From the IMG/VR virus record IMGVR_UViG_3300006046_000006, positions 1-60,886 of that record: a stretch of DNA of 60,886 bases; one strand, written 5' to 3'. Made by a program: the position numbers and the translations under genes. Numbering within the stretch: position 1 is the stretch's first letter; the number at the start of each line of letters is the position of its first letter. The stretch is from a virus (taxonomy: Duplodnaviria > Caudoviricetes). Below the pieces are notes generated by a model. That model did not search any database and was not told the origin of the DNA. It saw only the letters and a list, made by a program, of their open reading frames with translations. Below are positions 7,319 through 51,602 of this stretch, piece by piece.

Positions 7319-7843
7319 TCAGTTGAGTAAGTAGCGTCCGCAGACCGGCCAAGGGGATGCACCACGGGCTGCGTAAAGTAGCTGAGCACGGTAATCTTGC
7401 TCTTCTCTTGAAGCGTCGATAGGATCTCCTGAGCCTCCAACGCCTTCCCAGGTTCGTATGTCAAACTGATAGAGCCCTCGATACCATCCTTGTGGTGAAA
7501 CCGCGCGTAAGTTGTCAGTGGATTCGCAGATCCTAAGGCGATACCACTGAGATTCAGATGGATATCCATATACCTTCCTTGGTGGGACGTAGGGGGTGGG
7601 TTCCTCCTTTTCCGGAACCTCGACCAATTTCGCAGGTTCTGGCGATGGAGGTGGTATATATTGCGGTATCTCAGGTAATAGGTCAATCAACGCAAGGTCG
7701 ACGTATGTCCCCGAGACTCTATAGGCTGGCGAAAAAATTGCGTCGCCTATGGATGGTAAAGGTGTAGGATTTGCCTGAGTCTCAGGAAGTCCTGCCCCCA
7801 CTAGAATCGTTACGAAAGTTGTCGTGAGCACCAATTTTGCCAT
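7319..7843 (-). CDS. rpf: resuscitation-promoting factor (Rpf) transglycosylase, secreted
   Basis: W..L..CES, GLYQFD..TW, ASREEQ...A..LY..RG..PWP.CG; hydrophobic signal peptide from the ATG at 7843 with AGGAGG RBS. Confidence 0.92.
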   Translation of the reverse strand: MAKLVLTTTFVTILVGAGLPETQANPTPLPSIGDAIFSPAYRVSGTYVDLALIDLLPEIPQYIPPPSPEPAKLVEVPEKEEPTPYVPPRKVYGYPSESQWYRLRICESTDNLRAVSPQGWYRGLYQFDIRTWEGVGGSGDPIDASREEQDYRAQLLYAARGASPWPVCGRYLLN

Positions 7844-8111
7844 CGTAATTGCCCTCCTTGAGCGCCTTGCAGATCTCACACTCAGGATCTTCCCAAGTGA
7901 TCGGTTTGCCATGCAGAATGCATGTTGGTGTGGGGTGAGGTGGATATTCGAATGTCGGTTCTACAGATTCCCTTTCATACTTTACTAGAGATTCATTGAC
8001 GGCGTCGAGGGCCCTGAGAATCAGATTCCTGGACATTAAGGGTTCAAGTTGTTGTACGATTCCTTTCAGTTCGATCACGCGGTCTCGGATTTGTTGTACT
8101 TCAGCTGCCAT
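7782..8111 (-). CDS. hypothetical protein
   Basis: 109-aa ORF filling the gap between primase-helicase and rpf; overlaps both. Confidence 0.45.
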   Translation of the reverse strand: MAAEVQQIRDRVIELKGIVQQLEPLMSRNLILRALDAVNESLVKYERESVEPTFEYPPHPTPTCILHGKPITWEDPECEICKALKEGNYDGKIGAHDNFRNDSSGGRTS

Positions 8112-10090
8112 TGAGTACCTACTCTCTGAACTGTTCCGTTGATTTCTGCTCGTGCCAACTGGTTATAGACTCCGCCTTGAGTTATCCTAGCTGCATCAGC
8201 TAATTCCTTCAGTGTATGCAGACCAGGACCCAGTTCTCTCAGGGCAACAATGGCTTTGCCTTCTCGCTTAGGACCTTTCTCCTTGGCTTGGCGAATTCGT
8301 GGTTCTTTGGGTGGTTTCTCAGCTGGAGGTAGAACTACCTGCGGTTGCCACACCGCATTGTTGAGGTTCGTGATGCGGAATCCTCTCGAGGTGCTGCTCT
8401 TGGATTCCTGCTCGACATAGAGTTCCCCTCGCTTGCCTCGCTTGAGATATAAACTATCCTCAGCCCATGCATGATTCGCCATCGAGCCCAGCATCATCTG
8501 CCCGCCTCGTTGAGGGAACCGAGGGTCATTCTTTCTCAGGTGGTGAACTAGCATGAGAGCTGAGCGATGTTTGCGAGCGAGCTGTTTGAGAGGCTTGAAG
8601 ATCTTCTCGGTCATCTGTTGTGCCCGAGTCTCCTCGACATCTCCCGCCATCATCATCAGAGGATCGAGAATGCAGAGTTTATACTGACCCTCCTCGAGAA
8701 CTTCATCTAACCAATACTGCCAGGCCCCATCGCTGATGGTGAAGTGCTTCCCGATGAACGCATCCACCGCCAGATCTTTGGGCATTTCCTGAGCAGGCTC
8801 CCAAAATACCACACCCTCGTCAGAGACTACCTTGTCCAGCATCTTCGAGGGAAAGATCTTATCCAGGCGAACCTTTACCAGAGGTAGAGGATCTTCTTCC
8901 TGCATCCAGAGTACTCGGCCGGGGTCTATGACCTTGAAGTGATCGAGGAAGGGCACTCCAGTTGCGACTGAGATCGCAAGGTCTAGAGAACAGAAACTCT
9001 TATAAGACTTTGGCTCGCCAGCAATAAACCCCACAGCCCCTTGAGTCAGGATATCCTCGACCAACCACCTGGGGGGTTTGATATTTCTCATCAAGTCCAG
9101 CAATGGTGTGGGCTTCTGAAGGCGAGTCTCCTCATCCTCGTCATACTTATCTACCTGACGTAAGACATCTTCACTACGCTCAGCTAATGCCTTGGCAGTC
9201 TCAGTACTCAGTCGTTTGAACTCATCAGCCCTGCCGGCATATTTATTCCACACTGAATGTTTGACCAGCGCAATGATCTCAGCGAAGGAACACTTGGCAT
9301 CAGCCAGTTCACGTTCAACTTCCCAGAGAACCTCGCTGCGATCACCCGAAGTATCGGGGGCTTTGAGAAAGTCACGAGCTCGTTTGGAAACACCGAGCCT
9401 TACCTTCTTCTTCCACAACTCATGGCGATCTACTCGCTCGACCTCTTGTTCGATGATGTCTGAGACTACAGTGACTGCTGGCACGTCGGGCAACTCATTG
9501 AAGTCATCTGGCAGGTATGTTCTGCCTGCTGCCCAGAGCAGTTTGCCTTGCGGTGCCTCGCCATATTGCTGGACGTATTCGGGCTTGTGATTACGCCACC
9601 CAGGGATTCTCAGTAACTGTGTGGTATCCCACCCGCCGAGGTCAGCCTCGAGATAGTAGGTCATGCACTGGTTCTCACGACCTGGCCATGATGCGCCCTG
9701 GATATCCCCCGATACAATCCACAGCGCCTGGTATCTTCCCGGCGATGTTTCCCATGCGATAGTCGGTGGATAATCCTTGATGTCCTTGGGCTTTACCCCA
9801 TCTAGGTCAGCCCATAAAGCGTGCTCATCCATAGCATGCTCCAGGCGTCGTCGGGGTACTTCGAAGAGGGAAGGGCACCAGTAAAGATCGTCATCCACAT
9901 GTGCAGCCATATGTTTGAGTATCTCTGGTCTATCCTTCGGCCACTTGAATGCTTTGCCCTCCTTGTAACTCTGGATTCGTTCGGTCTTATCGACTGCAGT
10001 GCCTGAGATATACGGAAAGAAACAATACCCAATTTGCCTCCCCCACGCACGCGAGATTACATTGAGCATTTCGTCATGATTTCCCATCAT
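8075..10090 (-). CDS. primase-helicase (RepB-like primase domain + AAA_25/RecA-like ATPase)
   Basis: LWADLD, WETSPGRYQALW, LLRIPG..NHK; Walker A GEPKSYKS, Walker B CILDP, LVHHLRK. Confidence 0.9.
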   Translation of the reverse strand: MMGNHDEMLNVISRAWGRQIGYCFFPYISGTAVDKTERIQSYKEGKAFKWPKDRPEILKHMAAHVDDDLYWCPSLFEVPRRRLEHAMDEHALWADLDGVKPKDIKDYPPTIAWETSPGRYQALWIVSGDIQGASWPGRENQCMTYYLEADLGGWDTTQLLRIPGWRNHKPEYVQQYGEAPQGKLLWAAGRTYLPDDFNELPDVPAVTVVSDIIEQEVERVDRHELWKKKVRLGVSKRARDFLKAPDTSGDRSEVLWEVERELADAKCSFAEIIALVKHSVWNKYAGRADEFKRLSTETAKALAERSEDVLRQVDKYDEDEETRLQKPTPLLDLMRNIKPPRWLVEDILTQGAVGFIAGEPKSYKSFCSLDLAISVATGVPFLDHFKVIDPGRVLWMQEEDPLPLVKVRLDKIFPSKMLDKVVSDEGVVFWEPAQEMPKDLAVDAFIGKHFTISDGAWQYWLDEVLEEGQYKLCILDPLMMMAGDVEETRAQQMTEKIFKPLKQLARKHRSALMLVHHLRKNDPRFPQRGGQMMLGSMANHAWAEDSLYLKRGKRGELYVEQESKSSTSRGFRITNLNNAVWQPQVVLPPAEKPPKEPRIRQAKEKGPKREGKAIVALRELGPGLHTLKELADAARITQGGVYNQLARAEINGTVQRVGTQWQLKYNKSETA

Positions 10091-10794: not shown

Positions 10795-10823
10795 ATCATA
10801 TAAGATCTCGTCAACCCTGTCAA
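10795..10823 (-). promoter_or_regulatory. SigA-like promoter
   Basis: TTGACA gggttgacgagatctta TATGAT, followed by ATCAAATCAGGGG. Confidence 0.8.
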
Positions 10824-11188
10824 CCACTACTTGTCCCCGCGGACCATCGGGGCCATCGCTCGAGGCGTCGATCACGCGCAACTCGTAGGTCCAGAGTAGC
10901 GTTGTTATACTGGCGCTTCTTAACTATACCTAAGTAGGGCCAGATCTTGGGCATAAGATTTCTTAACTGAGCGGCAGAGATAGACCACATATACTTATTA
11001 CCCGAGATATACGGACCGTTGACATGACCGCACTCAGCAATACGGGCTATCTTGTCAAGGACTTCTCGATGTTTCTGACCAACAGTAAGACGAATTGAAC
11101 CTACTCCTCGTCCCCCCTTAGCCCACCGGAAACAACCTTCTCCATCTATGAATCCGGCAAGCCATGCGTAATCAGTTTCGGATGGCAT
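10820..11188 (-). CDS. LAGLIDADG homing endonuclease (single motif)
   Basis: YAWLAGFIDGEGCF motif; PYLGIVKKRQ C-terminal motif. Confidence 0.85.
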   Translation of the reverse strand: MPSETDYAWLAGFIDGEGCFRWAKGGRGVGSIRLTVGQKHREVLDKIARIAECGHVNGPYISGNKYMWSISAAQLRNLMPKIWPYLGIVKKRQYNNATLDLRVARDRRLERWPRWSAGTSSG

Positions 11189-11690
11189 CTGGTTCCCATC
11201 TTTCTAATGGACGATTTCGAGCAAGGTAAAGGGGGTGCAGGGGATTGCCTCCCTGTGTCATCCCAAAGATCCACAGACGATTCCCAGCTAGCGTGCGCAC
11301 CTTATCTATCTGCTTATCGGCCAGATTCCCTAGGCGCTCTGCGTTCGATCCCCATGCTGCCACGACTGAGTGATGGGTGGTCATGCACTCACGAAACACG
11401 AGGTCGTTGTCCGGTCCCACTGGGTCTACCACCCTCAGGAGATCCTTGGGATCTGGACTACGGTGAGCGAAGAGGTTGACCACGAGGAAACCACCGTAAC
11501 CCCAGTCCCTACTGTACTCAGTACACCGGCGGATAGTGGGATCGTCCTTGGTCCCATCTGCTCTGCTTGGGTTGAGCATGCACCACGTCAGATTGACTGG
11601 TTTGCTAAGGTCCCACAGTCTCCCGAGGGCATAGCGGTACCGCAGGCATGGACTGATCTTCGCAAACCGATGAACCTTAGCAGGAGTCAT
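11172..11690 (-). CDS. DUF1643 domain protein
   Basis: YRYAL.R.W, MLNPS.AD...DDPT.RRC, VNLFA, AAWG, P.HPLY. Confidence 0.9.
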   Translation of the reverse strand: MTPAKVHRFAKISPCLRYRYALGRLWDLSKPVNLTWCMLNPSRADGTKDDPTIRRCTEYSRDWGYGGFLVVNLFAHRSPDPKDLLRVVDPVGPDNDLVFRECMTTHHSVVAAWGSNAERLGNLADKQIDKVRTLAGNRLWIFGMTQGGNPLHPLYLARNRPLERWEPDAIRN

Positions 11691-16482: not shown

Positions 16483-17541
16483 TCATGTCGGAATCTTCCT
16501 TTCGTCACTGTCCTGGTCGTAATAATAATCGAGAGGATCGCCTTGGGTATACTTCTTTCTTCTCAAATGATCCGCTGACCCCGTGAATAGTTCGACAGTA
16601 CAGATGTCGTTGTATGAGCATCCGAAGCCGCAGCTACGATCAGGGACTCGTTCGATCTTCTGAGGGATATCCCAAGGATAGTTGTGCATTCGTTGATGGG
16701 TGTGGTATGCCTCTTGGACCACCTGCTTGATCATCCGAGTGTCCTTCTCGAGGACATCGCGTCGGAAGAAGGGCGAGGTCTGCAGTTCACCATGTCGATA
16801 CTGCATGTGCTTCAGTCTGAGTATCTGACGACGGTAGTCTTCGAGGTTGAGCTTGTACTTTTTGAGGGCGTTGACATAGGTGAGATAGTCCGTATCGACT
16901 GACTTCGTTGATATCCTTTGCCCAGACTTAAGAAGGTATGGGATCGTGGGTGCTTTCGTACGAATGTAATTCCAGATGTGACCTTGAACTGGAATCTTAT
17001 TCTTCCATGCCGCCCAAATATACAATGCAGATTGAGCGTCGAGGAGGCGGAACCCAATGTTGGGTAGGACTTTGTGTGACTTGTGGTCGACAATCCATAA
17101 CCCGTACTGGTCTTCCACCAGGAGGTCGATCTTTCCACGATATACGGACCCGTCAGGAAATTCCGTTTCCAGTATGAACTCAACCTCATGGACTTTCCAA
17201 TCGTGCTCTTTGTAGTGCCAGAGATATGCCTTCATGATTCTGTCGCACTCACGAGGCAAGTCACCTAGTGTTTCTTTCTCCTCGTCGAAGAGATCGTTGA
17301 ACTTGACTGTCAATGCTGCGTGCTTCTCTTCCCAGCTGGAGCCAGAGTACATCGCCTCAAGCAAGGCATGTATCCAAGTTCCACGCTCGAGGGGAAGAGA
17401 TCCTATCTTGGGCTTCAATCTCTGGACATACTTGTAGTCCGCTTGCTTCGGGCATCGACGGAAGGTCTTGATCATGCTGTGTGTGGTGATGACCTTGCCA
17501 TCGTCGACATATAGTGGAAGCGTATTCACAGTACTCATCAT
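16483..17541 (-). CDS. PD-(D/E)XK Cas4/RecB-like exonuclease
   Basis: THS.IKTF..CP, GT..H, GKIDLL, IVDHKS, Q..LY, C-terminal C...C.Y..IC. Confidence 0.88.
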   Translation of the reverse strand: MMSTVNTLPLYVDDGKVITTHSMIKTFRRCPKQADYKYVQRLKPKIGSLPLERGTWIHALLEAMYSGSSWEEKHAALTVKFNDLFDEEKETLGDLPRECDRIMKAYLWHYKEHDWKVHEVEFILETEFPDGSVYRGKIDLLVEDQYGLWIVDHKSHKVLPNIGFRLLDAQSALYIWAAWKNKIPVQGHIWNYIRTKAPTIPYLLKSGQRISTKSVDTDYLTYVNALKKYKLNLEDYRRQILRLKHMQYRHGELQTSPFFRRDVLEKDTRMIKQVVQEAYHTHQRMHNYPWDIPQKIERVPDRSCGFGCSYNDICTVELFTGSADHLRRKKYTQGDPLDYYYDQDSDERKIPT

Positions 17542-17750
17542 ATCACTTCCCGATTAGGGCGAGCAAATCCATGTTGATTCTTAGTTCCTCGAATCTCTCG
17601 ATGAATCCTCGCTGCTATCTCGTAAGGATGTTCGTGTGGACGGTCGATGAATCTCTCAGCCATTCTAGCGGTGTCCTTACCAAACTCTTTCCTCAACCAG
17701 TCGAGCATCTCCTCTCGAGATTCATCTTTGTGTTCAGAACGAGAAGTCAT
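17538..17750 (-). CDS. hypothetical protein
   Basis: 70-aa ORF with GAGG RBS between pol and exonuclease. Confidence 0.55.
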   Translation of the reverse strand: MTSRSEHKDESREEMLDWLRKEFGKDTARMAERFIDRPHEHPYEIAARIHREIRGTKNQHGFARPNREVI

Positions 17751-20214
17751 ATACTTCCTCCGGCTTTAGTTCTCGAGCGTCTCCCCAATGGGTTCCAATC
17801 TTGAGGTCTGAGATGATAGGGACATCAAGATCAACACCGAACCACTTCTTGAGCGGGAGGTTTTCCATGGTATCCTTGATGATTGGAAGAGCCAGTGGAA
17901 CATGGTCGTTGTGGATTTCGAAGTTGAGTGCATCATGTACTAGTCCTAAGCATGTCCCCTTAATCCCCTGCTCTTTAAACTGACGGTTGACCAGGATCAT
18001 TGAGATGAGATTCATATCCGAGGCGAAAGATTGCACAGGTGAGTTGATTGCTTGGCGTTCAGCTTCAGCCATGACCCCTTGATCACTGCTATAGATATCA
18101 GGGAGATGCCTCACACGTCCTATGGGCGACTGGACTCGACCGTATTGCTGTACTATTCGTCGCTGACGGTTGTGCCATCCGTAAAGCCCTCGGAATCTTT
18201 CAAAAAACGAACGTCGGATATCAGTCGCCTCTCCGATGGAGAAGACGAGCTCGTACTTCTCGAAGGCCGTAGTGACGAATTTCTTAGCTCCCATACCGTA
18301 GACGAATCCGAAGTTAACTGCCTTAGCTTTCTTACGGTCTTCCTTTGTAACTTTAGACATCGGTATGCCAAGTACCCATGATGCAGTAGCAGTATGTATA
18401 TCTTCATTCCTCTGGTAGATGCCCAGCATCGTTTTGTCTCGGCTGAGAAAAGCGACCACTCGTAGTTCAACCTGCGAGAAATCAGCCTCGACAAAGGTGA
18501 AACCAGGAGGGGCGCCAAAGAGTCCGCGGATGAAAGGGTCCCGTGGGACCTGCTGAAGATTGACTCCTCTAAGGTTCGTCTTTCCTCCAGTGATCTTCTC
18601 AGCATCCTCCTTACCAGAGGAGAGACGTCCCGTGACAGTCCCGAAGAGTTTAAAGGTGGTATGTATGCGGTCATTCTCATCCCTCAATGCGTCGTATCTG
18701 GTTACGTATGTAGAGCAATACTTCTGCCACTTCGCTCGTTCCATGAGCAGAGTGATTACTTCGTAGTTCTTGTGATTCTTCTGCGAGACCTTGAGATCCA
18801 TCATCACTGCTTCTCTTACACTCGGATCACCCAAGCTACCGTCAGACTTTTCTTTTCCTCTCTCAGTAATTGGAAAACCCAGATAGCCGAAAAGCCACCA
18901 TCGCAGGAAGTTAGAAGCATTGAAATTAACCTCCACTGGTTTTCCTTTTGAACTGGATGGCCAACCCATACTTCCGGCTTCTGGGACATGTTTCATCAAC
19001 TCCTGGTCTATCGCATCCCGCATGTCGAATGAGATCTTGATGGCATTGTCGAGGCGTTCCCGATCAATCCAGATCCCATACATCTCAGTCCCGATGAGAT
19101 CTTCGTTGGCTGGCATGATCATCAACTTGAACAACCGCAGCAACCTTGGTTGCTCGATCAGTTGTTGACGAAAGATCTTATAGAGATGGTAAGTATAGTA
19201 AGTGTCCAAAGCGTTATACCGCAGTACAATACGTAGCGGTGTATTGAGCAGGTTCTTAGTTTTGATCGCCCACCCTGGTACACCAAGAAGGATGCGAGCC
19301 AATGGCTTAAGTCCTTTAACGCGGTTTTCGTCCAGAAGGTGAGCCGCCAAGAGAGTGTCAAAAGTGACGCCAATATTAACACCGAAGCGCCTAAGCCACT
19401 TAGCATCGTACTTCCCATTGTGTGCGATCTGCTTCTTTATCTCGCAGAGATCTATGGATAGATACTTCAGAACTTTCTCCCAGGAATTTCGCCAGGGCGA
19501 TTCAGGGTGGTACAGGGGCAGGGCCCATACTTTCTCCACACCGTCATGGGTTATGCATGTGCCTGCCAGAGAGACGATAGCTGCTCCATCACTAAACTCG
19601 GTATCTCCGGTAGTCTCAATATCATAGGAGATGGTATGGCAACGACGAAGTAACTTTCGCAGCGACCTGAGTTGGGGTTTAGTGTAAACAACAGAGATCT
19701 TTGGGATGTGAACAGCGTCGGGTCGCCCAAGAACCTGAGATACGAAGAACTGGATATCAGCTTGCCATCCTGACTTCTGGCCTGGGTTACGGTTAACTGA
19801 ACCAGGGGCCACCGTAGCGACCACGTTATGTGTTTGTTGGGCCAGTACCTGACCTCGGTAATTCGTGATACCCGAATGACCTGTGAGCGCATAGAGCGCC
19901 TCGTTTCCAAAAGCCAGGATCCACTTCGGTTTGATCTTAGCTATCTCTTCCTCGAGATATGGGCGGCATGCCTTGACCTGAGGATTCTTGATATCCTGGT
20001 CGAACGTGCGGCACTTAGCGGCAGCGGTGAAGTACACCCTCCCTAAGTCCAACCCTGCGTTGACCAGCTCATCCTCGATCATCGACTGATAGTTCCCTGA
20101 GTTGGGCATCCTCGACACCACCATGATGTCCGCGCCCTTCGGCCCAAAGCCCCACTGACACACGACATCAGTGGTCTGATGCAGCTTGCACAATGTGCAG
20201 TCAGGGTTTCGCAT
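17734..20214 (-). CDS. polA: family A DNA polymerase with N-terminal UDG family-4-like domain and 3'-5' exonuclease
   Basis: ExoI YDIETTG, ExoII HNGKYD, ExoIII YNALD; TGRLSS, NLQQVP, motif A DFSQVELR, motif B RKKAKAVNFGFVYG, motif C VHDA; N-terminal CTLC...KC...C UDG-like cysteines. Confidence 0.95.
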   Translation of the reverse strand: MRNPDCTLCKLHQTTDVVCQWGFGPKGADIMVVSRMPNSGNYQSMIEDELVNAGLDLGRVYFTAAAKCRTFDQDIKNPQVKACRPYLEEEIAKIKPKWILAFGNEALYALTGHSGITNYRGQVLAQQTHNVVATVAPGSVNRNPGQKSGWQADIQFFVSQVLGRPDAVHIPKISVVYTKPQLRSLRKLLRRCHTISYDIETTGDTEFSDGAAIVSLAGTCITHDGVEKVWALPLYHPESPWRNSWEKVLKYLSIDLCEIKKQIAHNGKYDAKWLRRFGVNIGVTFDTLLAAHLLDENRVKGLKPLARILLGVPGWAIKTKNLLNTPLRIVLRYNALDTYYTYHLYKIFRQQLIEQPRLLRLFKLMIMPANEDLIGTEMYGIWIDRERLDNAIKISFDMRDAIDQELMKHVPEAGSMGWPSSSKGKPVEVNFNASNFLRWWLFGYLGFPITERGKEKSDGSLGDPSVREAVMMDLKVSQKNHKNYEVITLLMERAKWQKYCSTYVTRYDALRDENDRIHTTFKLFGTVTGRLSSGKEDAEKITGGKTNLRGVNLQQVPRDPFIRGLFGAPPGFTFVEADFSQVELRVVAFLSRDKTMLGIYQRNEDIHTATASWVLGIPMSKVTKEDRKKAKAVNFGFVYGMGAKKFVTTAFEKYELVFSIGEATDIRRSFFERFRGLYGWHNRQRRIVQQYGRVQSPIGRVRHLPDIYSSDQGVMAEAERQAINSPVQSFASDMNLISMILVNRQFKEQGIKGTCLGLVHDALNFEIHNDHVPLALPIIKDTMENLPLKKWFGVDLDVPIISDLKIGTHWGDARELKPEEVYDFSF

Positions 20215-20425
20215 TCCATGCCTCGTACAGTCGTCGTAGTTTGCAGACCCGCTCGAACTCAGAAGACCATCCGTAGGCAGTCCTGGGCAATTCACTGTAG
20301 ACCCCTTGAGCAGCTAATCCACAAGCCTCTAGCTGAGTCTTCAGCTTCTCCACGTCGCCCAGCGCATTGCTCAGGTCTTGGCGCATCTTCTCGTACTCTG
20401 CGTCATCCACTTCGATCATCGTCAC
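20201..20425 (-). CDS. hypothetical coiled-coil protein
   Basis: 74-aa ORF coupled to neighbours. Confidence 0.55.
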   Translation of the reverse strand: MTMIEVDDAEYEKMRQDLSNALGDVEKLKTQLEACGLAAQGVYSELPRTAYGWSSEFERVCKLRRLYEAWNAKP

Positions 20426-20847
20426 ACCCTGATTATATCAATACTAGCTGCTTCGAGTAAATCTTCCCCATCCCGGGTTCGATATTCATTCCTGATATAC
20501 ACCGTGCAGATTCCGGCGTTGATGATCAACTGAGCACAAGGAAGACAAGGGCTAAATGTAGTATATAACTCAGCGTCAGATAGACGTATGCCATGTTTCG
20601 CAGCGAAAGCAATAGCGTTTGCCTCCGCATGAACCGCAGTTCTGCATCCCGGGTAATCTGGCGGATCATCACTATGGTTACAATGAGGCATCCCAGCTGG
20701 GCTACCATTATAGCCAGTACTAAGTATTCTTCCCTCATGAGCAATTACCACCCCGACGTGTGCTCGAGAACAGGTGGACCTCTTAGCATATAGTTCTGCT
20801 ACCTCCATGAGAGTGAGTGGTCTAGAAGGCCGTTGGTTCATAGTCAT
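20422..20847 (-). CDS. dCMP deaminase
   Basis: RSTC.R..VG, TGYNG, HAEANAI, PCLPC. Confidence 0.93.
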   Translation of the reverse strand: MTMNQRPSRPLTLMEVAELYAKRSTCSRAHVGVVIAHEGRILSTGYNGSPAGMPHCNHSDDPPDYPGCRTAVHAEANAIAFAAKHGIRLSDAELYTTFSPCLPCAQLIINAGICTVYIRNEYRTRDGEDLLEAASIDIIRV

Positions 20848-21661
20848 CGTCTATCTCCGCCAGTAGGTTGGACATTGTGAAGGCATCTCCTTCGAAGATG
20901 TGTAGAGAACTTATGTGGCATATCATTGATCCCACACCAACATCGGCGTGCCCTGCTACGAACTGCATGAGCCGCCCCGTCATATACATGTCGTCAGCCC
21001 AGTGCCTCAGGAAGTCACAGCTTCTCATCGTGTAGGTGCAGTACAGTTTGCCTTGTCGGATCATGAAATGGTATCCTAGTGAGCAAGGGATCCTCTCACC
21101 ATGCACTGCGCCAGTATCCTCGGGAAAGAACACTGGCATATACGCCTGCCTAGTCAATGGATCCCTCACCAACAAAGAGATAACATCATTGAGATCTCCA
21201 TAGTTGAATCGAATTCCTCGGTGCGGAAACCCATACATCTCAATCTCTTTGTAGTACCACTTGCCCGCATGCTTTGGCCAGTACCTCTCAGGGTATGTGT
21301 GGGAGTATACCTCTTCCGTCTTGTGTGCGGAGTTGTTCTGCACTGCGTATGGCCACCATGCCTCTGATGGTGCGGGATTGTGTGGGATACCAGAGATTCG
21401 TTCCTGGAAATGATCTTCAGCCCAGGGTATATTTGCCTGAGTCGCTACTGCCAATTCCCTTGAACTCGGTGGAATATGCACCTCGTAGTTTACGAAGGGC
21501 AGTTCAATGGAGGGCATATCCGTGGGCTTGGCATGCCAGGTCGTGACTGGAACCTGCTGCGGTAGTGATGTCGTGGGGTGAGTCCAATAACTATTGAAGA
21601 TCTTCACCAGATGTTCGTAGATACCTGGGAAGGTATGTTCAAGTAGACTCGTCATCATCAT
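20822..21661 (-). CDS. thymidylate synthase-family enzyme (possible dCMP hydroxymethylase/methylase)
   Basis: DPLTRQA, PCSLGYHF (catalytic Cys), MRSCDF, SSLHIF; Asp at the position of E. coli ThyA Asn177. Confidence 0.85.
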   Translation of the reverse strand: MMMTSLLEHTFPGIYEHLVKIFNSYWTHPTTSLPQQVPVTTWHAKPTDMPSIELPFVNYEVHIPPSSRELAVATQANIPWAEDHFQERISGIPHNPAPSEAWWPYAVQNNSAHKTEEVYSHTYPERYWPKHAGKWYYKEIEMYGFPHRGIRFNYGDLNDVISLLVRDPLTRQAYMPVFFPEDTGAVHGERIPCSLGYHFMIRQGKLYCTYTMRSCDFLRHWADDMYMTGRLMQFVAGHADVGVGSMICHISSLHIFEGDAFTMSNLLAEIDDDYEPTAF

Positions 21662-22701
21662 TCATCGTCTCCATCATCGAGCCAGGAATCTTCCGAGGGC
21701 TTTATGAGAGTCGCCCCATAAGTTCCGCCCTCAACGAATGGGATACTGATCACTGAGAAATCCAGCGTATCGACGGTGACACTAGGAAGGGGTTGATATG
21801 CCTTGAAGAATTCTTTGTTCTGTCCCTTGTTCGGGCCTGTCTTGTAGACACTCCACCCCTCAAATTCTTGCGCCCTCTCGTACCCCAACACTTCGGTGTG
21901 GTATCTACGTCGGATCCGCCGGTAGGTATTGTAACTCATGTCTCCGAGAGACTCACCCTTCTGATCTGCCAGGATGATTTTCTTCAACCACTTACGAGTG
22001 AGCAGTAGTGCCGGGCGGTCAGCCACATAGTCCAGCAGCTCTAGTTCTTTCAGTTTGCGGTCGGACTTCATCATGTATGTGCGGAAGGTCTTTTGAACTT
22101 CAGGGTCAGGGTTGTTGAGCAGAAATGCCATAGACTTGAAGTTGTGATACTGCAGCGCTTCGATCATCCACACGAACTTGATGCGCTCGACTGGTATACC
22201 TAGCTCGTTGGCGACGTATCTTCCACACCACCAAGCGACTGACAGATCGAGTCCAGATAGATATCCAAGGTAACTTGTCCGCGAGTAGAGAGTGATCTGA
22301 GGAGCTGGCAAAGCCTTATATGAGATTGCCAGCATGCAGCTACCCCAGCGTCTCGTCTCTTGATTTCCTTTCTTGACTCCACCCCGAGCCGCAACGCTTC
22401 TTGTACGAAGCATAGCAATTCCTCGGCCCTTGGTTCCGATGTGCTTGGTGATCTTCTCGATCCACTCAATGAACTCTCCTGGCGGTATGTATTGACGCAC
22501 CATCATCGACCAACGAGACTGTGTCAACCACAACCACTTCAGATCAAACTCCCAAGCCATTGACTTAGCCTCGGCTATGACGTTGTGAATCTGAACATCA
22601 GCTGACGTGATGACATCCAGCTCAGGCTTGGTGCTCAACACCAAAGTCTTACAGAGCTTGTCGTGCATCTCAGTCATGGTACGGAATTGGTATGCGTGCA
22701 T
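21658..22701 (-). CDS. divergent thymidylate-synthase-fold protein
   Basis: GSCMLAISY...ITLYSRTSYLGYLSGLD parallels the TS PC...RSxDxxxGxxxN spacing; adjacent to the TS gene. Confidence 0.55.
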   Translation of the reverse strand: MHAYQFRTMTEMHDKLCKTLVLSTKPELDVITSADVQIHNVIAEAKSMAWEFDLKWLWLTQSRWSMMVRQYIPPGEFIEWIEKITKHIGTKGRGIAMLRTRSVAARGGVKKGNQETRRWGSCMLAISYKALPAPQITLYSRTSYLGYLSGLDLSVAWWCGRYVANELGIPVERIKFVWMIEALQYHNFKSMAFLLNNPDPEVQKTFRTYMMKSDRKLKELELLDYVADRPALLLTRKWLKKIILADQKGESLGDMSYNTYRRIRRRYHTEVLGYERAQEFEGWSVYKTGPNKGQNKEFFKAYQPLPSVTVDTLDFSVISIPFVEGGTYGATLIKPSEDSWLDDGDDE

Positions 22702-23009
22702 TAGTCGGGTAGCTTCCTTTGCATGTCGTAGGCGTCTTCCGCTTGAAGACGGAAGTAATCAGAAATCTTCAGCAATCTAGGCACCAAGCCCGGTTCACTG
22801 CCTGTCACTTTCAAAGCCTCAACCACCACCAGAATAGCGTTGGCATAAGCATCTAGAGCTGGAGGTGCGAACACATCTTGCTTACGAATGACTACCGCAT
22901 CTCTAACTGGTTCACATATGTCAATGTCTGATAGATACTTTAGATGCCAGAAATCAAACTCTTCTCGATTGAAGACGATGTACTTCTCATCAACTATCCT
23001 GCGCACCAT
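22701..23009 (-). CDS. hypothetical protein
   Basis: VVIRKQDVFAPPALDAYA; lies within the nucleotide cluster. Confidence 0.7.
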   Translation of the reverse strand: MVRRIVDEKYIVFNREEFDFWHLKYLSDIDICEPVRDAVVIRKQDVFAPPALDAYANAILVVVEALKVTGSEPGLVPRLLKISDYFRLQAEDAYDMQRKLPD

Positions 23010-23511
23010 ATTCTCTCACCTTTCGTCCGTACTCGCCTACGCAAGTTCTGTCGCAGAATGACCCCGCATATAGGGGGCTGTATAAACTGACGCCCGCCTG
23101 ATCTAGGTCCTTATGACAGTTGCGGCATCTGTTAGCCACACCATCATAGCCCGTGCGTTGTCTGTCTTGGTTAACTTGATTCTTCGCGTAATACTTCTCA
23201 GCAAACTCAGCAGCCAATGCTTCGGGAGACATGCCTGGAGAGATGCCCAGCATGATGTTCATGAAGAAGTGCCAGGCATCAACCATCTCTTTCATGAACG
23301 CTTCCCGATTGAGATGTTTGCTGGTTGCCCAAGGCTTCCACCCACACTCTCGTAGGGCCTCGTGCAGTTCGTCCTCTAGGGCGAGCACATTCGTACGAAT
23401 GTACTCCATGAGCTCAGCCCCTTCTAAGTCTCGGGGGTCGCCGATTATTCTCAATTGGAGCTGGAGCTGCTTTTCTAACATCTGGGAAATATCGGTTGGC
23501 GACGTTGACAT
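22990..23511 (-). CDS. all-alpha dimeric dUTPase/dCTPase (dUTPase_2/MazG-like) with C-terminal Cys cluster
   Basis: EDELHEA...WKPW, KEMVDAWHFF, KNQVNQDRQRTGY. Confidence 0.88.
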   Translation of the reverse strand: MSTSPTDISQMLEKQLQLQLRIIGDPRDLEGAELMEYIRTNVLALEDELHEALRECGWKPWATSKHLNREAFMKEMVDAWHFFMNIMLGISPGMSPEALAAEFAEKYYAKNQVNQDRQRTGYDGVANRCRNCHKDLDQAGVSLYSPLYAGSFCDRTCVGEYGRKVREYGAQDS

Positions 23512-24049
23512 AGCGGCTGAACTCTTCTTTCAACATGAAGGTTAGGTAGTGGATGAAATCTTCGTAGACATCTTGCGTGTAATCCCACACTATCACATTG
23601 GCTCGTGCGGCATTCTGGCAGTAGTTCGTATGGTACATCCAATAGATGCTGGAGATTGCCTTGCATACTGCCTCGTTGTCGGTATCCGACCGAAGGACAT
23701 TGCGAACTACCTCCTCGACTGGAGGCATGCAATAGATGACCAGGGGTCGAGCCTTCCAGAAATGACCCAACTGACGGATGAACCAGATCGAATCTTCGAA
23801 CCCATCTGCGAGTCTTCCCCGCATTATTGGCGCGTATATGGGTTCAGAGATCATGCGATGCCGGTCATAGATCGCAGCCCGAGGCCAAGCGAGTAGATCC
23901 TCATCGACCCATCGCTTGAGCGAGACACCTCCGATAGGGTTCGTGCTTGAATCGACCACCCTTGGTTCCACCGACATCTGGAATTGCTGACACAGCCTCA
24001 TGACTAACTGAGTCTTACCAGCACCGTCTGGTCCTTCAACAACTATCAT
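23414..24049 (-). CDS. dNMP (thymidylate-like) kinase
   Basis: IVVEGPDGAGKT P-loop; IYDRH..ISE.IY. Confidence 0.85.
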   Translation of the reverse strand: MIVVEGPDGAGKTQLVMRLCQQFQMSVEPRVVDSSTNPIGGVSLKRWVDEDLLAWPRAAIYDRHRMISEPIYAPIMRGRLADGFEDSIWFIRQLGHFWKARPLVIYCMPPVEEVVRNVLRSDTDNEAVCKAISSIYWMYHTNYCQNAARANVIVWDYTQDVYEDFIHYLTFMLKEEFSRYVNVANRYFPDVRKAAPAPIENNRRPPRLRRG

Positions 24050-24079: not shown

Positions 24080-24108
24080 ATATTATCAATAACTCGTTCT
24101 CGCGTCAA
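24080..24108 (-). promoter_or_regulatory. SigA-like promoter heading the nucleotide/polymerase operon
   Basis: TTGACG-N17-TAATAT with TGA extension; direct repeat ctcgttctcgc x2 nearby. Confidence 0.65.
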
Positions 24109-24129: not shown

Positions 24130-25626
24130 CTATTTGAACCCTCGAAGCAAGATCTCAGGTGATGCCATGATCTCCTTGACTGCCATGTCGTCACCCTGGA
24201 GGACTTCATACTGCGTCTCATCGTAGGTGCCTGTGCAGTGCAGATAGACGAAGCGGTTGGCCTTGCCTGAGAGGGCGATGCGATCCTTGGCCTGAGTGTA
24301 GTCGACGTAGGAACTTGTCAATGAATACCAGATCATAGTCGAGGCAGTCCGCAAGTCAATACCCAACGCACCGGCTTGTGGATTCATAATCATGACGGCA
24401 GGTCCGGATCTATTGCGGAAGGTCTCGATGTTTTTGGTGCGATCTCGTCGCTTTTGACCACCGTAGATAAGCTGAGGCACGACCTTATGCTCTCTCGCAA
24501 GTTTGCTAATGCTTGCAAGGTCTGCGCGGAATCGGGCACAGACAACGAGCTTTTCTTCTTGTTCGAACCAGTCTTCGAAGAGGTCATCGAGTATCCTTAG
24601 TTTCTCTTGTCCGATGCGAACTAACCGACCCTTGGGATATTTCTCGCTCGGGGCAGTTCGTGCAATGCCGGAGGTGATCTGGCAGAGGCGCAAGTTCAGC
24701 ACGAGTTTAATACTTGCCTCGGTGATCTCGCCCGTCTTGATCTTGGCGATCATCTCCTCAGCCATGTCGATGTAAACTTTGCGAGATTCCTCGAGAGGAA
24801 CGTGGATAATTTGCGGTGGGAAGTTTGCAGGAAGGTCGAAGCATTCGTCCCTCGTCACGGCAAACGAATCTGCGTGCACGAGGCGGTGAAGTGTCTTCTG
24901 ATTTCTCTCACCTAACCACTGCGGATATCCATTCTTATCAATCCACACCCCATACTTCTTCTTGAAGCTGAGCGAGGTGTGCTCTGCTATCAGGGGTGAG
25001 TCTGGCTTCATGAACTTCCACTGAGAGTACAGATCGAATACCCTCTTCTTCTTCGTGACTGCCGTGCCCGTTGATAGGATTTTGTACTCAGCCACCTTGC
25101 CCAGTCGTTGCACGGCCATTGTCTTCTTAGCGCTGGGACTTTTGATACGATGCGACTCATCCAGAATGATCAGGTTAGGTTGCCAGGCCTTCAGCTTCCT
25201 GACCACGTCAAACCGACCACCGTTTTTCTTGGATCGTTTGGGGCTTCCGTCGGGAAGTTTCCCGATAATCTCACCAGGAGTGGAGAAGGCGTCATAGTTG
25301 ATGATAACAAAGTCCAGATACTCTGTTCCATATCGAGGTAAGGCAACGGCCTTCCTTCCTTCTTTGTCCCAAATAGTTATACGGTACTTGGCTGGGCAGT
25401 GCATCTTGATCTCATCTATCCAGACGTCGATCACCGACACTGGACATACAACGAGTACCCTCGAGAGTTTGTCAGCTTGGTATAGAATCGAGGCGAAGTC
25501 GATGCAGACCTTGGTCTTACCCGTTCTCGGATCCATCAGGAGAGCGCCACCAAACTGTAATTTCAGCAACCTCCTGAGTGCAGCAACTTGATGCTTGTAC
25601 GGCTTGGTCTTAAATTTGTAGATCAT
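24130..25626 (-). CDS. SNF2-family helicase
   Basis: PYKHQ, MDPRTGKT, LVVCP, ILDESH, TGT, GIDL, Q..DRI. Confidence 0.92.
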   Translation of the reverse strand: MIYKFKTKPYKHQVAALRRLLKLQFGGALLMDPRTGKTKVCIDFASILYQADKLSRVLVVCPVSVIDVWIDEIKMHCPAKYRITIWDKEGRKAVALPRYGTEYLDFVIINYDAFSTPGEIIGKLPDGSPKRSKKNGGRFDVVRKLKAWQPNLIILDESHRIKSPSAKKTMAVQRLGKVAEYKILSTGTAVTKKKRVFDLYSQWKFMKPDSPLIAEHTSLSFKKKYGVWIDKNGYPQWLGERNQKTLHRLVHADSFAVTRDECFDLPANFPPQIIHVPLEESRKVYIDMAEEMIAKIKTGEITEASIKLVLNLRLCQITSGIARTAPSEKYPKGRLVRIGQEKLRILDDLFEDWFEQEEKLVVCARFRADLASISKLAREHKVVPQLIYGGQKRRDRTKNIETFRNRSGPAVMIMNPQAGALGIDLRTASTMIWYSLTSSYVDYTQAKDRIALSGKANRFVYLHCTGTYDETQYEVLQGDDMAVKEIMASPEILLRGFK

Positions 25627-25763
25627 CGGCGGTGTCTTGCGGCCTTCCAGAATCCTACTACCACCCCTATGATGGCAGCAATCATAACACCCAGGACAAA
25701 TATAACTACCCCTATCATAAGGAGCACGAATAACGCAAGCCACACCCAGAGTAAGAGGCTCAT
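25623..25763 (-). CDS. small membrane protein
   Basis: MSLLLWVWLALF... hydrophobic; ATGA overlaps on both sides. Confidence 0.55.
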   Translation of the reverse strand: MSLLLWVWLALFVLLMIGVVIFVLGVMIAAIIGVVVGFWKAARHRR

Positions 25764-34358: not shown

Positions 34359-35195
34359 CTACGACCCGCCCTGGTGATTGGTGCGGATCGTCAAGCTGCC
34401 ACCTGTGAGCGAACCCACACCGGCAGTCATCTGGGCCACGTTCACACCGGCATAGACACCCTTGAATTCGACGATCCAGTCACCGGGACCACCGGTAACG
34501 AGGACATCGCCTGGGGCGATATTCGACAAACCCTCGAGCGCTGTCGTGAGTGCTGCCGTGCTGATGTTGTAAGCCAGTGCGCCGGTCGTTTGAGCGGCAA
34601 ACGTGAGCGTGAATGTACCGCCAGTGGCGTCCGAGATGATCTCTTGGATTTCATTGGAGGTAAGGGCAATCGCAGTCTGCGTCTCATTCCAAGTGATGCG
34701 ATAGAGGTTATCATTCACATCGCCCAGTCCTCGACCAGAACAGTGCGTCACGAAGAATACACCGTCACCGAACTCGCCCTCGAGAGTGTCATCACACTTG
34801 CACTTGTAGATGATGACGTGGACGTCACCACCATCGTCGGCAATGGATTGACCCTCGATGCGGAAGTATCGCCGTGTGTCGGTGATCTTCTTCAGGAAGT
34901 CCTTGACTTCCGTGGTGCCTGTACCCGAGGTCGTAATAGTACCACCGCTGAAGACATTCCAGGCTTCAATGGAGATACCACCTGCCTCAAGTTCCCACTC
35001 AACTGTCGGACCTTTACCGTGGACAGCCACGAGTCGATCATCACCACGCAACTCTTCATAGTCCTCAGCTTCGCTGAATGACAATGTCTGAGACACTGGG
35101 AGATCAACCGTGGTAGCCAAGGTACCGTCCGTGTTGATAGGCGTTATTTTCACATCCCTCAAGCCAAACGGCAATACGGGATCAGTTAGAGCCAT
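34359..35195 (-). CDS. major tail (tube) protein with C-terminal accessory domain
   Basis: LPFGLRDVKITP...ELRGDD...VEWELEAGGIS...YFRIEGQ; C-terminal ATGGTFTLTF...LEGLSNI domain; synteny. Confidence 0.88.
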   Translation of the reverse strand: MALTDPVLPFGLRDVKITPINTDGTLATTVDLPVSQTLSFSEAEDYEELRGDDRLVAVHGKGPTVEWELEAGGISIEAWNVFSGGTITTSGTGTTEVKDFLKKITDTRRYFRIEGQSIADDGGDVHVIIYKCKCDDTLEGEFGDGVFFVTHCSGRGLGDVNDNLYRITWNETQTAIALTSNEIQEIISDATGGTFTLTFAAQTTGALAYNISTAALTTALEGLSNIAPGDVLVTGGPGDWIVEFKGVYAGVNVAQMTAGVGSLTGGSLTIRTNHQGGS

Positions 35196-50878: not shown

Positions 50879-51602
50879 TGTTGTGTCTCCCCATGGTGTC
50901 ATCCACCACGTCGGCGTCAATGTACCCCTGCGTGAGTGCGTACTCGTCGAAGTTCGTCTGGCTGGGGTTCACCATGGCGTGAGCCAGGATGCCCTGCAGC
51001 GTTACTGAGACCTCGGACTCAATGTGCTTGACCGGCTTGCCTATGACATGCTCGATCAGGAACTTAGCAGCATCCAGCTTCACCGCGGCAGGCACCATAG
51101 GCTTGCCCTTCTTATCGACCTTGTCATTCTTGAGGATGTTTGACATCACCCCGAGAGCCTCGATGGTGTGGACATTCATCTCAGTCTTGACTAGCTTCTC
51201 ATACCGTCGGATTATCTCCTCGTGGTACGCCTTGCTGATCCAGGTCGGTTGTTTGCCCCGGAAGCCTCCGCCGGCATCGCGTGGGCGCCCTCGAGCCAGC
51301 TCCTCGTCGTCCCACTCCTCGACGGGCTTGTACAGCATCCTCAGGTCAGCCTCAAGCAACTCCCCTCGACGACGAGCCCTTTTGCGGATCTGCTTGTCGT
51401 TCGTAGCTCGCCTAGGGTCGAGCGGGGCAACCGTATAGCCGTCTGGATCATCTTCCGCCTTCAGCTGGTAAGGTCTGCCCTTACGACCGACCATCGGCTT
51501 CCCTCGAGCGTTTAGGAATGAGTACCTCATATCCAGTTCGCATGGAGTAGCACCAGGGCCATTTTTATAGGCAAATCGAGCCCGTCGTTCTGCGTTTCTC
51601 AT
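50868..51602 (-). CDS. probable terminase small subunit
   Basis: WDDEELARGRPRD..G.FRG, VKLDAAKFLIEHVIGKP helical pattern; upstream of TerL. Confidence 0.6.
   Translation of the reverse strand: MRNAERRARFAYKNGPGATPCELDMRYSFLNARGKPMVGRKGRPYQLKAEDDPDGYTVAPLDPRRATNDKQIRKRARRRGELLEADLRMLYKPVEEWDDEELARGRPRDAGGGFRGKQPTWISKAYHEEIIRRYEKLVKTEMNVHTIEALGVMSNILKNDKVDKKGKPMVPAAVKLDAAKFLIEHVIGKPVKHIESEVSVTLQGILAHAMVNPSQTNFDEYALTQGYIDADVVDDTMGRHNNGT

Follow-up and report, generated by a model that had tools for sequence, protein, structure and literature searches.

The virus record IMGVR_UViG_3300006046_000006 of IMG/VR, analysed here over its whole length of 60,886 bases (referred to below as the window), carries on its minus strand, at positions 20422-24049, a compact set of six open reading frames (ORFs), most of them with predicted functions in deoxypyrimidine metabolism. 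On balance, this set is probably a pre-replicative module for the re-routing of deoxypyrimidines, the core of which is a pair of enzymes with the thymidylate synthase (TS) fold. Pathways of this kind are already known from phages T4 and Xp12/PaMx74 and from MetaGPA contigs; new here are an uncharacterised clade of TS homologues and, strictly linked with it, an uncharacterised TS-fold paralogue of 347 amino acids (aa). The gene content and order on the minus strand, as described in an initial annotation made from the sequence alone, were reproduced by the ORF, Pfam and PHROG analyses. The six ORFs, from upstream to downstream, are:

23414..24049 (-): P-loop nucleoside/nucleotide kinase with the deoxynucleoside kinase (dNK)/thymidylate kinase (TMPK) fold, 211 aa; phrog_761 'thymidylate kinase', 3.8e-14
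22990..23511 (-): all-alpha nucleoside triphosphate (NTP) pyrophosphatase of the dimeric dUTPase_2 family, 173 aa; PF08761, 3.7e-13; phrog_18650, 8.1e-26
22701..23009 (-): ORF of 102 aa without a family; no match in Pfam, PHROG or NCBIfam
21658..22701 (-): divergent TS-fold paralogue, 347 aa; phrog_13667 'unknown function', 3.2e-107; no Pfam or NCBIfam family
20822..21661 (-): TS-family enzyme with a cytosine-type active site, 279 aa; PF00303, 38.3 bits (cut-off 24.3)
20422..20847 (-): zinc-dependent deoxycytidylate (dCMP) deaminase, 141 aa; PF00383, 3.5e-23; phrog_174, 4.1e-52; HAE and PCxxC motifs

Neighbouring ORFs overlap or abut by 1 to 98 nucleotides (nt), which is consistent with co-transcription. 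The dCMP deaminase gene overlaps the gene of the TS homologue by 26 nt, and the pyrophosphatase gene lies 1.3 kb upstream of these two.

Active site of the TS homologue

Residues of the TS homologue (20822-21661) were assigned by aligning it, with MAFFT, to E. coli ThyA and T4 gp42, the sequences of which came from annotated records; ThyA numbering is used, and residue counts refer to 50 sequences, i.e., the window protein and 49 homologues of related viral loci. The protein belongs to the PF00303 superfamily, as indicated by a score above the gathering cut-off together with the catalytic Cys, R-S-x-D and His motifs. Its residues C193 (the nucleophile), R190, R213, S214, D216 and H254 align with C146, position 143, R166, S167, D169 and H207 of ThyA, respectively. 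Cys146, Arg166, Asp169, Asp177 and His207, as well as Tyr123 (window numbering), are invariant in all 50 sequences, and the S214 column holds Ser in 43 and Ala in seven of them.

The initial annotation had pointed to the motif RSCDFLRHWADD, claiming Asp in place of ThyA Asn177. This was borne out: the last Asp of the motif (D224) shares a column with N177 of ThyA and with the Asp of 'RND' in gp42, and Asp occupies this column in 50/50 homologues. Position 147 is Ser or Thr in the 50 sequences and His in none. It has been reported (eLife PMC8670742) that Asp177 is enriched on cytosine-modified contigs and that residues other than His147 also go with them. Based on these residues, the TS homologue very probably acts on a cytosine nucleotide. 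Its best sequence relative of known structure is the CMP hydroxymethylase MilA (PDB 5b6d/5jnh; 5.5e-10), with the Cys, the Arg-x-x-Asp and the specificity Asp aligned. MilA, described as a cellular CMP 5-hydroxymethylase of the mildiomycin pathway that prefers the ribonucleotide, differs from the window protein in having Asp, not Arg, three residues before the Cys.

As regards the reaction product, the ThyA-type features, namely Asn177, the hydrophobic Leu143, the C-terminal tail and an equivalog score, are absent from the TS homologue. It reaches none of the NCBIfam TS equivalog cut-offs (49.6 bits vs. 174.55 and 29.1 vs. 327) and shares about 17-18% identity with ThyA and 16% with T4 gp42, compared with 31% between PaMx74 TS and ThyA. 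Its chain ends about 20 residues past the last core strand (LHIF), like that of gp42, whereas ThyA and PaMx74 TS run approximately 50-60 residues further. The likeness to T4 dCMP hydroxymethylase suggested in the initial annotation holds for Asp at ThyA-177 and for the missing C-terminal tail, but it fails at another position. According to IUCrJ PMC6400193, dCMP hydroxymethylases are marked by the lack of this tail and by Asp/Glu three residues before the Cys (T4 D145N is inactive), and at this position (ThyA-143) Arg is present in 50/50 TS homologues. The D169N exchange marking flavin-dependent 5-hydroxy-dCMP synthases (NAR PMC13326640) was not found either, Asp216 being kept in 50/50. An invariant SHTYPER motif is located in the region of the water-positioning Ser/Thr-x-Tyr pair of T4, where two alignments place it differently. 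With Arg143 and no tail, the clade therefore does not correspond to any of the signatures published for methyl, hydroxymethyl or hydroxy products.

In a maximum-likelihood tree, the 26 rows of which comprised 10 named sequences and every third (16) of the 49 IMG/VR sequences, a split supported at 95/90 set ThyA, Huwbert gp68, PaMx74 TS and T4 gp42 apart from the TS clade of the window; RB69 gp48 fell on the side of this clade, on a long unresolved branch. In Microbacterium phage Huwbert the Asp-type gp67 adjoins a canonical Asn-type ThyA, gp68, which is 65% identical to E. coli ThyA (the gene pair occupies L001 4998-6643), and both proteins are annotated as 'thymidylate synthase'. Since Huwbert carries a canonical ThyA beside gp67, the Asp-type enzyme is not simply the TS of that phage, and this gene arrangement argues for a role of the clade other than dTMP synthesis.

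The 347-aa TS-fold paralogue

The product of 21658-22701, termed a divergent TS-fold protein in the initial annotation, is not matched by PF00303 (Pfam, E<=0.01), nor is any of 35 relatives (E<=0.1). A profile-profile comparison with TS found nothing when the shallow family alignment was used, and a deeper alignment gave an E-value of 0.064 only. It was structure prediction that substantiated the term. An AlphaFold2 (AF2) model built with an alignment of 32 homologues (pLDDT 89.8, pTM 0.86) was compared with known structures using Foldseek (probability 1.00), in which the 50 matches listed were all of the TS family bar one designed hydrolase (4f2v_B), the top ones being the dCMP hydroxylase AfhB of phage HY126 (9iqu, E 6.4e-6) and MilA. 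With VIA-align, all 50 matches listed were TS-family chains; Z reached 15.7 for AfhB (9iqu, rmsd 3.2, 184 residues), 14.5 for MilA and about 12 for ThyA chains, with 180-190 residues aligned, and it was at least 8 for 396 of 849 chains. Moreover, a feature search of the ESM Atlas led to a cluster with 67% PF00303 members (score 0.93). By its model, the 347-aa protein has the TS fold.

In an alignment of 57 sequences reaching down to 23% identity, Y71, G120, C122, R141, D152 and W178 are invariant and S140, Y144, H186 and R262 nearly so; C122, R141, Y144, D152 and H186 were found in 52/52 loci. The weak hhalign match to the TS alignment (E 0.064) pairs C122 with C146, R141 with R166, Y144 with D169, D152 with position 177 and H186 with H207, and the succession of secondary-structure elements along the AF2 model leads to the same pairing. 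With these residues, the protein looks like an active enzyme that would attack C6 of a pyrimidine and read cytosine, the pterin-holding Asp seemingly being lost. Its chain also contains a helical, Arg-rich insertion of about 90 residues (approximately residues 190-280).

This viral family is of moderate size: clustering at 90% identity gives 900 clusters, and at 50% identity there are 220 representatives (E<=1e-3). Among proteins of 609-2000 residues no fusion was seen, although this is weak evidence, and the score of 0.00 obtained when a complex of the two TS-fold proteins was predicted speaks neither for nor against their binding. A literature search returned no account of a paired TS-fold gene or of modified DNA in the actinophage carriers; the supplementary TS alignments of 10.1101/2024.12.05.627091 and PMC13326640 lay outside this search and might include the clade.

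Conservation and distribution of the module

The cassette is not peculiar to the window phage, as it was found in 85 phage records and 52 IMG/VR loci. It is embedded between replication genes, and the flanking features of the window are:

24130..25743 (-): SNF2-family helicase, the conserved upstream neighbour; PF00176, 1.4e-17; PF00271, 3e-11
24080..24108 (-): weak match to a sigma-70-like promoter; TTGACG, 17 nt spacer, TAATAT, with TG; 9/12 positions
20201..20425 (-): ORF of 74 aa between the deaminase and PolA genes; no family in Pfam, PHROG or NCBIfam
17734..20295 (-): DNA polymerase I (PolA) with a 3'-5' exonuclease and an N-terminal uracil-DNA glycosylase (UDG)-like domain, 853 aa; PF00476, 6.5e-76; PF01612, 1.8e-14; PF03167, 2.7e-12
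16483..17541 (-): PD-(D/E)XK exonuclease, the conserved downstream neighbour; PF12705, 3e-20; phrog_1218, 7.8e-79

The PolA gene starts about 130 nt past the stop of the dCMP deaminase gene. The initial annotation derived the whole operon from a promoter at 24080. The match at 24108-24080 exists, but sigma-70-like sites in the region are not in excess over shuffled sequences (13 vs. 8.6 +/- 2.9), and the helicase gene, located on the same strand, stops 80 nt upstream of the kinase gene, so that the operon may begin earlier.

The 52 IMG/VR loci were found with the alignment of the 347-aa family, many of them being cut at 6 kb, and their genes were detected by blastp. Homologues of the 347-aa protein, the helicase and the kinase were detected in 51 loci each, the TS homologue in 49, and the deaminase and PolA in 46 each. 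The conserved order is helicase, kinase, NTP pyrophosphatase, TS-fold gene, TS homologue, deaminase and PolA. The helicase gene lies directly upstream of the kinase gene in 51/52 loci, and the deaminase gene directly follows the TS homologue in 46/52; the PD-(D/E)XK exonuclease was found in 26/52, with many loci cut as mentioned. It should be stressed that the two TS-fold genes are adjacent in 49/52 loci and that the other three loci stop at a contig edge, while occasional insertions between the two, e.g., of an endonuclease VII gene, do occur. The slot between the kinase and the paralogue is taken by dUTPase_2 proteins in 31 loci (blastp) and a further five (Pfam), and by PRA-PH proteins in six; the role of the all-alpha pyrophosphatase is conserved, and its family varies. 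The 102-aa and 74-aa ORFs had no counterpart among the ORFs of the 52 loci (phmmer; E<=1 for the 102-aa one) and are not conserved parts of the module. In one locus (L045:7736-8533, + strand), a gene for an MT-A70-type adenine methyltransferase (PF05063, 4e-32) is located between the TS homologue and the deaminase.

The 85 phage records with a homologue of the 347-aa protein belong to phages of Gordonia (68), Mycobacterium (9), Streptomyces (4), Microbacterium (2), Curtobacterium (1) and Mycobacteroides (1). In phages FF47 and Huwbert the gene order equals that of the window, running from the helicase and kinase through the dUTPase, the 347-aa homologue and the TS homologue to the deaminase and PolA. 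The whole cassette is also present in Pseudomonas phage Lebethron, with a divergent paralogue in which the spacing of the Cys, Arg and Asp is kept (hhalign E 0.0039). In Clostridium perfringens phage C2, a 249-aa homologue (hhalign probability 95%, E 2.4e-8) is encoded directly upstream of a TS homologue, next to PolA; this TS homologue has Arg143, Asp177 and a short C-terminus, and a deaminase is not annotated there. The pair of TS-fold genes is therefore widespread in phages of three bacterial phyla, beyond actinophages.

Other enzymes of the module

The kinase was modelled with AF2 at pLDDT 90.4 (about 58-62 over the last ~30 residues), and its top Foldseek matches were deoxyadenosine kinase 2jat, YorR 3kb2, dCK and thymidylate kinases. 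We infer that it is the enzyme for the deoxynucleoside monophosphate (dNMP), modified or not, and that the all-alpha pyrophosphatase performs the step from dCTP/dUTP to the monophosphate. The kinase and pyrophosphatase ORFs overlap by 98 nt in different frames (23414-23511, -), and one of the gene ends may be mis-set. In the dCMP deaminase, the HAE and PCxxC motifs are readable in the translation; this protein is also similar to an NCBIfam model named 'anti-phage dCTP deaminase', with a score under the cut-off.

In the UDG-like domain of PolA (N-terminal ~180 residues), 'MVVSRMP' and 'VATVAPGS' stand at the motif positions, and the catalytic motifs are seemingly missing, while active UDG-PolA fusions are reported to have LLVGE and LNHP (PMC13697223). 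Judging from these motifs, the window protein may belong to the degenerate class of such fusions. The fusion was considered as a marker of a T-modified genome, and this use of it was dropped, because PMC13697223 separates active from degenerate fusions and the domain of the window looks degenerate.

Comparison with known systems

The linkage of a TS homologue with a dCMP deaminase gene was analysed by the MetaGPA authors in a preprint, bioRxiv 10.1101/2024.12.05.627091, where a deaminase gene not more than 3 kb from a TS homologue is reported for 104/149 predicted cytosine-modified contigs vs. 17/277 canonical ones, the domains co-located with this linkage being PRA-PH, DNA_pol_A and its exonuclease. 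According to the same source, most deaminase-linked TS homologues bear the cytosine-type residue, five of the seven tested made 5-methyl-dCMP, and many linked deaminases prefer 5-methylcytosine (5mC), which suggests that dTMP is obtained from 5-methyl-dCMP, as in Xp12 and PaMx74. With the MetaGPA, Xp12 and PaMx74 modules, the module of the window shares an Asp-177 TS homologue followed by a dCMP deaminase, an all-alpha pyrophosphatase upstream, and a family-A polymerase with exonuclease nearby. By the MetaGPA criterion, it falls among modified-cytosine modules, with a dUTPase_2 pyrophosphatase instead of PRA-PH (its relatives have either). It differs from PaMx74 in several respects. PaMx74 TS has Asn at ThyA-143 and a long C-terminal segment, whereas the TS homologue of the window has Arg, is short and belongs to another clade; a dihydrofolate reductase (DHFR) gene, frd, stands next to the PaMx74 cassette, whereas no DHFR was found in the window genome; and no TS-fold paralogue is annotated beside the PaMx74 TS (a comparison by annotation, the neighbouring proteins being uncompared), whereas the window has a strictly linked one.

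A parallel with the T4 set gp42/gp56/gp1/cd was drawn in the initial annotation, and it stands, since a pyrophosphatase, an Asp-177 TS homologue, a kinase and a deaminase are all present, next to PolA. All four roles are thus represented, and Asp at ThyA-177 (T4 Asp179) and the short C-terminus are also shared. In contrast to T4, the essential Asp/Glu is replaced by Arg, a second TS-fold enzyme is added, and glucosyltransferases were not found. In agreement with the initial annotation, no glycosyltransferase or sugar-nucleotide gene was recognised among the 64 ORFs scanned with Pfam and 61 with PHROGs (about 21 of them with PHROGs only), in which remote folds could escape. Likewise, no DNA methyltransferase turned up in the Pfam and PHROG scans of the window ORFs, a six-frame PF00303 search of the genome yielded no second match, and neither ThyX nor DHFR was found in it.

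The 5-hydroxy-dCMP synthases RB69 gp48, DLP3 gp80 and HY126 AfhB share the TS fold with both enzymes of the window, and AfhB is the closest known structure to the 347-aa paralogue, which, like AfhB, appears to depart from Asp169. These synthases are reported to act on dCMP in a flavin-dependent manner, by chemistry other than folate one-carbon transfer (NAR PMC13326640). They carry D169N, whereas the TS homologue of the window keeps Asp (50/50) and the paralogue has Tyr at the paired position (52/52). AfhB and the paralogue have approximately 10% identity, and the paralogue contains the ~90-residue helical insertion.

Proposed pathway and alternative explanations

In the proposed pathway, the all-alpha pyrophosphatase would first return dCTP and/or dUTP to the monophosphate. 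Cys193 of the Asp-177 TS homologue would then attack C6 of dCMP, the substrate class being suggested by the signature, and the one-carbon unit of methylene-tetrahydrofolate would be passed to C5. A non-reduced product, such as hydroxymethyl, would be favoured here, because the C-terminal lid needed by TS for hydride transfer is missing and the phage has no DHFR that could be recognised. The 347-aa paralogue would use a different co-substrate and take as its substrate either the same nucleotide or what the previous step yields; the nucleophilic Cys, the phosphate-binding Arg, the cytosine-reading Asp and the His appear to be kept in it, and Tyr would replace the folate-binding Asp. Next, the dNK/TMPK-like kinase would phosphorylate the modified dNMP, a host NDP kinase would yield the triphosphate, and the phage PolA would incorporate it. 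The dCMP deaminase would supply dUMP or convert part of the 5-substituted dCMP to a thymine-type nucleotide, and deamination of 5-substituted dCMP has been reported for deaminases linked to TS homologues of the Xp12 type (10.1101/2024.12.05.627091). It appears somewhat probable that the virion DNA carries a non-canonical pyrimidine. The initial annotation had proposed 5-modified cytosine, or a modified uracil made by deamination; its observations were confirmed, and this interpretation of them is supported in part.

Several points weigh against such a pathway. The T4-type acidic residue is replaced by Arg throughout the clade, so the favoured product is not supported by the signature, and the loss of this residue argues, at the sequence level, against a plain T4-like hydroxymethylase. 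The mapping of the 347-aa protein onto ThyA is derived from the weak hhalign match (E 0.064) and the order of secondary structures, with no residue-level superposition. A deaminase, a dUTPase, a TS-family enzyme and a TMPK-like kinase also make up an ordinary dTTP-supply set, depositors annotate the TS homologues as thymidylate synthase, and 6.1% of unmodified contigs also carry the deaminase-TS linkage, as reported in 10.1101/2024.12.05.627091. Finally, the phage is known solely through metagenome assemblies.

The published work on deaminase-linked enzymes suggests that the module could operate as in Xp12 or PaMx74, i.e., that the TS homologue is a dCMP methyltransferase, 5-methyl-dCTP replaces dCTP, a 5mC-selective deaminase makes dTMP, and the 347-aa protein is an accessory. 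The formation of 5-methyl-dCMP by five of seven such Asp-177 enzymes, the 5mC preference of many deaminases (10.1101/2024.12.05.627091), and the local order of pyrophosphatase, TS and deaminase, shared by PaMx74, would agree with this. We nevertheless regard it as unlikely, since the TS homologue lacks the long C-terminal part of PaMx74 TS and ThyA, which is reported to seal the site for methylation (PMC6400193), the DHFR gene adjoining the PaMx74 cassette has no recognised counterpart in the window genome, the 95/90 split places PaMx74 TS with ThyA and T4 gp42, away from the clade of the window, and identity to ThyA is 18% as against 31% for PaMx74 TS. Doubtful, too, is an ordinary supply of thymidylate for canonical DNA, in which the module would raise dTTP for a phage of lower G+C content than its host, the TS homologue either still making dTMP or feeding a route from dCMP through 5-methyl-dCMP to dTMP with the intermediate wholly deaminated. 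The classical composition of the gene set, the names given by depositors and the fact that no other TS or ThyX was found in the window speak for it. Against it stand the invariant Asp-177, the absence of His-147 and of the C-terminal tail, scores far under the NCBIfam TS equivalog cut-offs (49.6 vs. 174.55; 29.1 vs. 327), and the canonical ThyA that Huwbert keeps beside its Asp-type gene; moreover, the strictly linked second TS-fold enzyme would be left unexplained.

A modified nucleotide might also be made for a purpose other than DNA synthesis, e.g., as an inhibitor or decoy against a nucleotide-based host defence, or as a drain on the dCTP pool of the host. MilA, the closest relative of known structure, is described as making a precursor of a nucleoside antibiotic and not of DNA, and the deaminase resembles the 'anti-phage dCTP deaminase' model, under its cut-off; however, the fixed place of the module between the replicative helicase and PolA, with a kinase of its own (46-51/52 loci), fits a supply line for replication, and this explanation is highly improbable.

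Within the preferred reading of a re-routing module, the chemistry may be new, as suggested in the initial annotation, and the second TS-fold enzyme sharpens this question. A bolder version, which we put forward tentatively and consider improbable as a whole, is that the pair makes a C5-substituted deoxycytidylate other than the 5-methyl, 5-hydroxymethyl or 5-hydroxy form, and that this base or its deaminated thymine-type counterpart occurs in the DNA of many phages of Actinobacteria, Pseudomonas and Clostridium, including relatives infecting Mycobacteroides abscessus. Such a product could arise if the Arg-143 TS homologue trapped the exocyclic-methylene intermediate with a nucleophile other than water, or if the paralogue, with Tyr at D169, re-activated the first product by an attack at C6 and swapped or extended the C5 group. 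The latter would be a second TS-fold step at the nucleotide level, described for no phage.

Significance for related phages

Should the DNA be modified, an unrecognised base would be present in a sizeable group of phages, comprising 85 deposited records, mostly of SEA-PHAGES actinophages in which 'thymidylate synthase' and 'hypothetical protein' are the annotations given, and hundreds of metagenomic relatives. Such a base would have consequences for the evasion of restriction and defence, for cloning and sequencing bias, and for selecting phages against Mycobacteroides, Gordonia or Clostridium. The 347-aa family would add a functional branch of the TS fold beside ThyA, the dCMP/dUMP hydroxymethylases, the dCMP methylases and the flavin-dependent dCMP hydroxylases, and the Arg-143 clade would show that the current residue rules for the products of TS homologues are incomplete. 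The gene pair has cultured carriers, among them Microbacterium phages Huwbert and Triscuit, Gordonia phages GTE2 and Cozz, Mycobacterium phage FF47, Pseudomonas phage Lebethron and Clostridium phage C2, and an in vivo assay has been published.

General features of the phage genome

The window equals the whole virus record (CheckV completeness 100%) and has a G+C content of about 52%. Genes for siphovirus-type structural proteins (major head and tail proteins, tape measure, portal and terminase) are present together with the replication block, and the stretch was found in 15 soil-metagenome runs, with contigs in each and no RNA run among those listed, its recurrence being confined to soil metagenome assemblies. 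The window is a complete 60.9-kb soil siphovirus. Regarding its host, a transglycosylase-like domain (PF06737, 6.2e-17) is encoded at 7319-7912 (-); we take this domain to be of the Rpf type, common in Actinobacteria, and see in it, along with the relatives among actinophages, a hint of an actinobacterial host.

The window avoids palindromes (4-mer mean z -2.54). ATCGAT occurs once vs. 23.2 expected (z -5.9), and TGCA, GGCC and CGCG are strongly depleted (z -7.6, -7.1 and -5.3, respectively), which points to pressure from specific host restriction systems. Palindrome avoidance was considered as a proxy for unprotected DNA and dropped, because PaMx74, reported to replace C by 5mC (10.1101/2024.12.05.627091), avoids 6-mer palindromes as strongly (mean z -0.98).

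Two further regions of the window are worth mentioning. The 884-aa protein encoded at 51599-54253 (-) begins with a major-tail-protein domain (phrog_4971, 6.8e-42), followed by CBM_35/CBM_6, PKD and beta-helix parts; the 278-aa major tail protein encoded at 34359-35195 belongs to phrog_4971 as well, and in the larger protein a tail-tube-like domain is thus joined to carbohydrate-binding modules. Just downstream of the primase/helicase gene (8075-10090), at 10820-11690 (-), an ORF resembling LAGLIDADG homing endonucleases (PF00961, 4.4e-6) is located beside the gene of a DUF1643 protein (PF07799, 2.9e-37).

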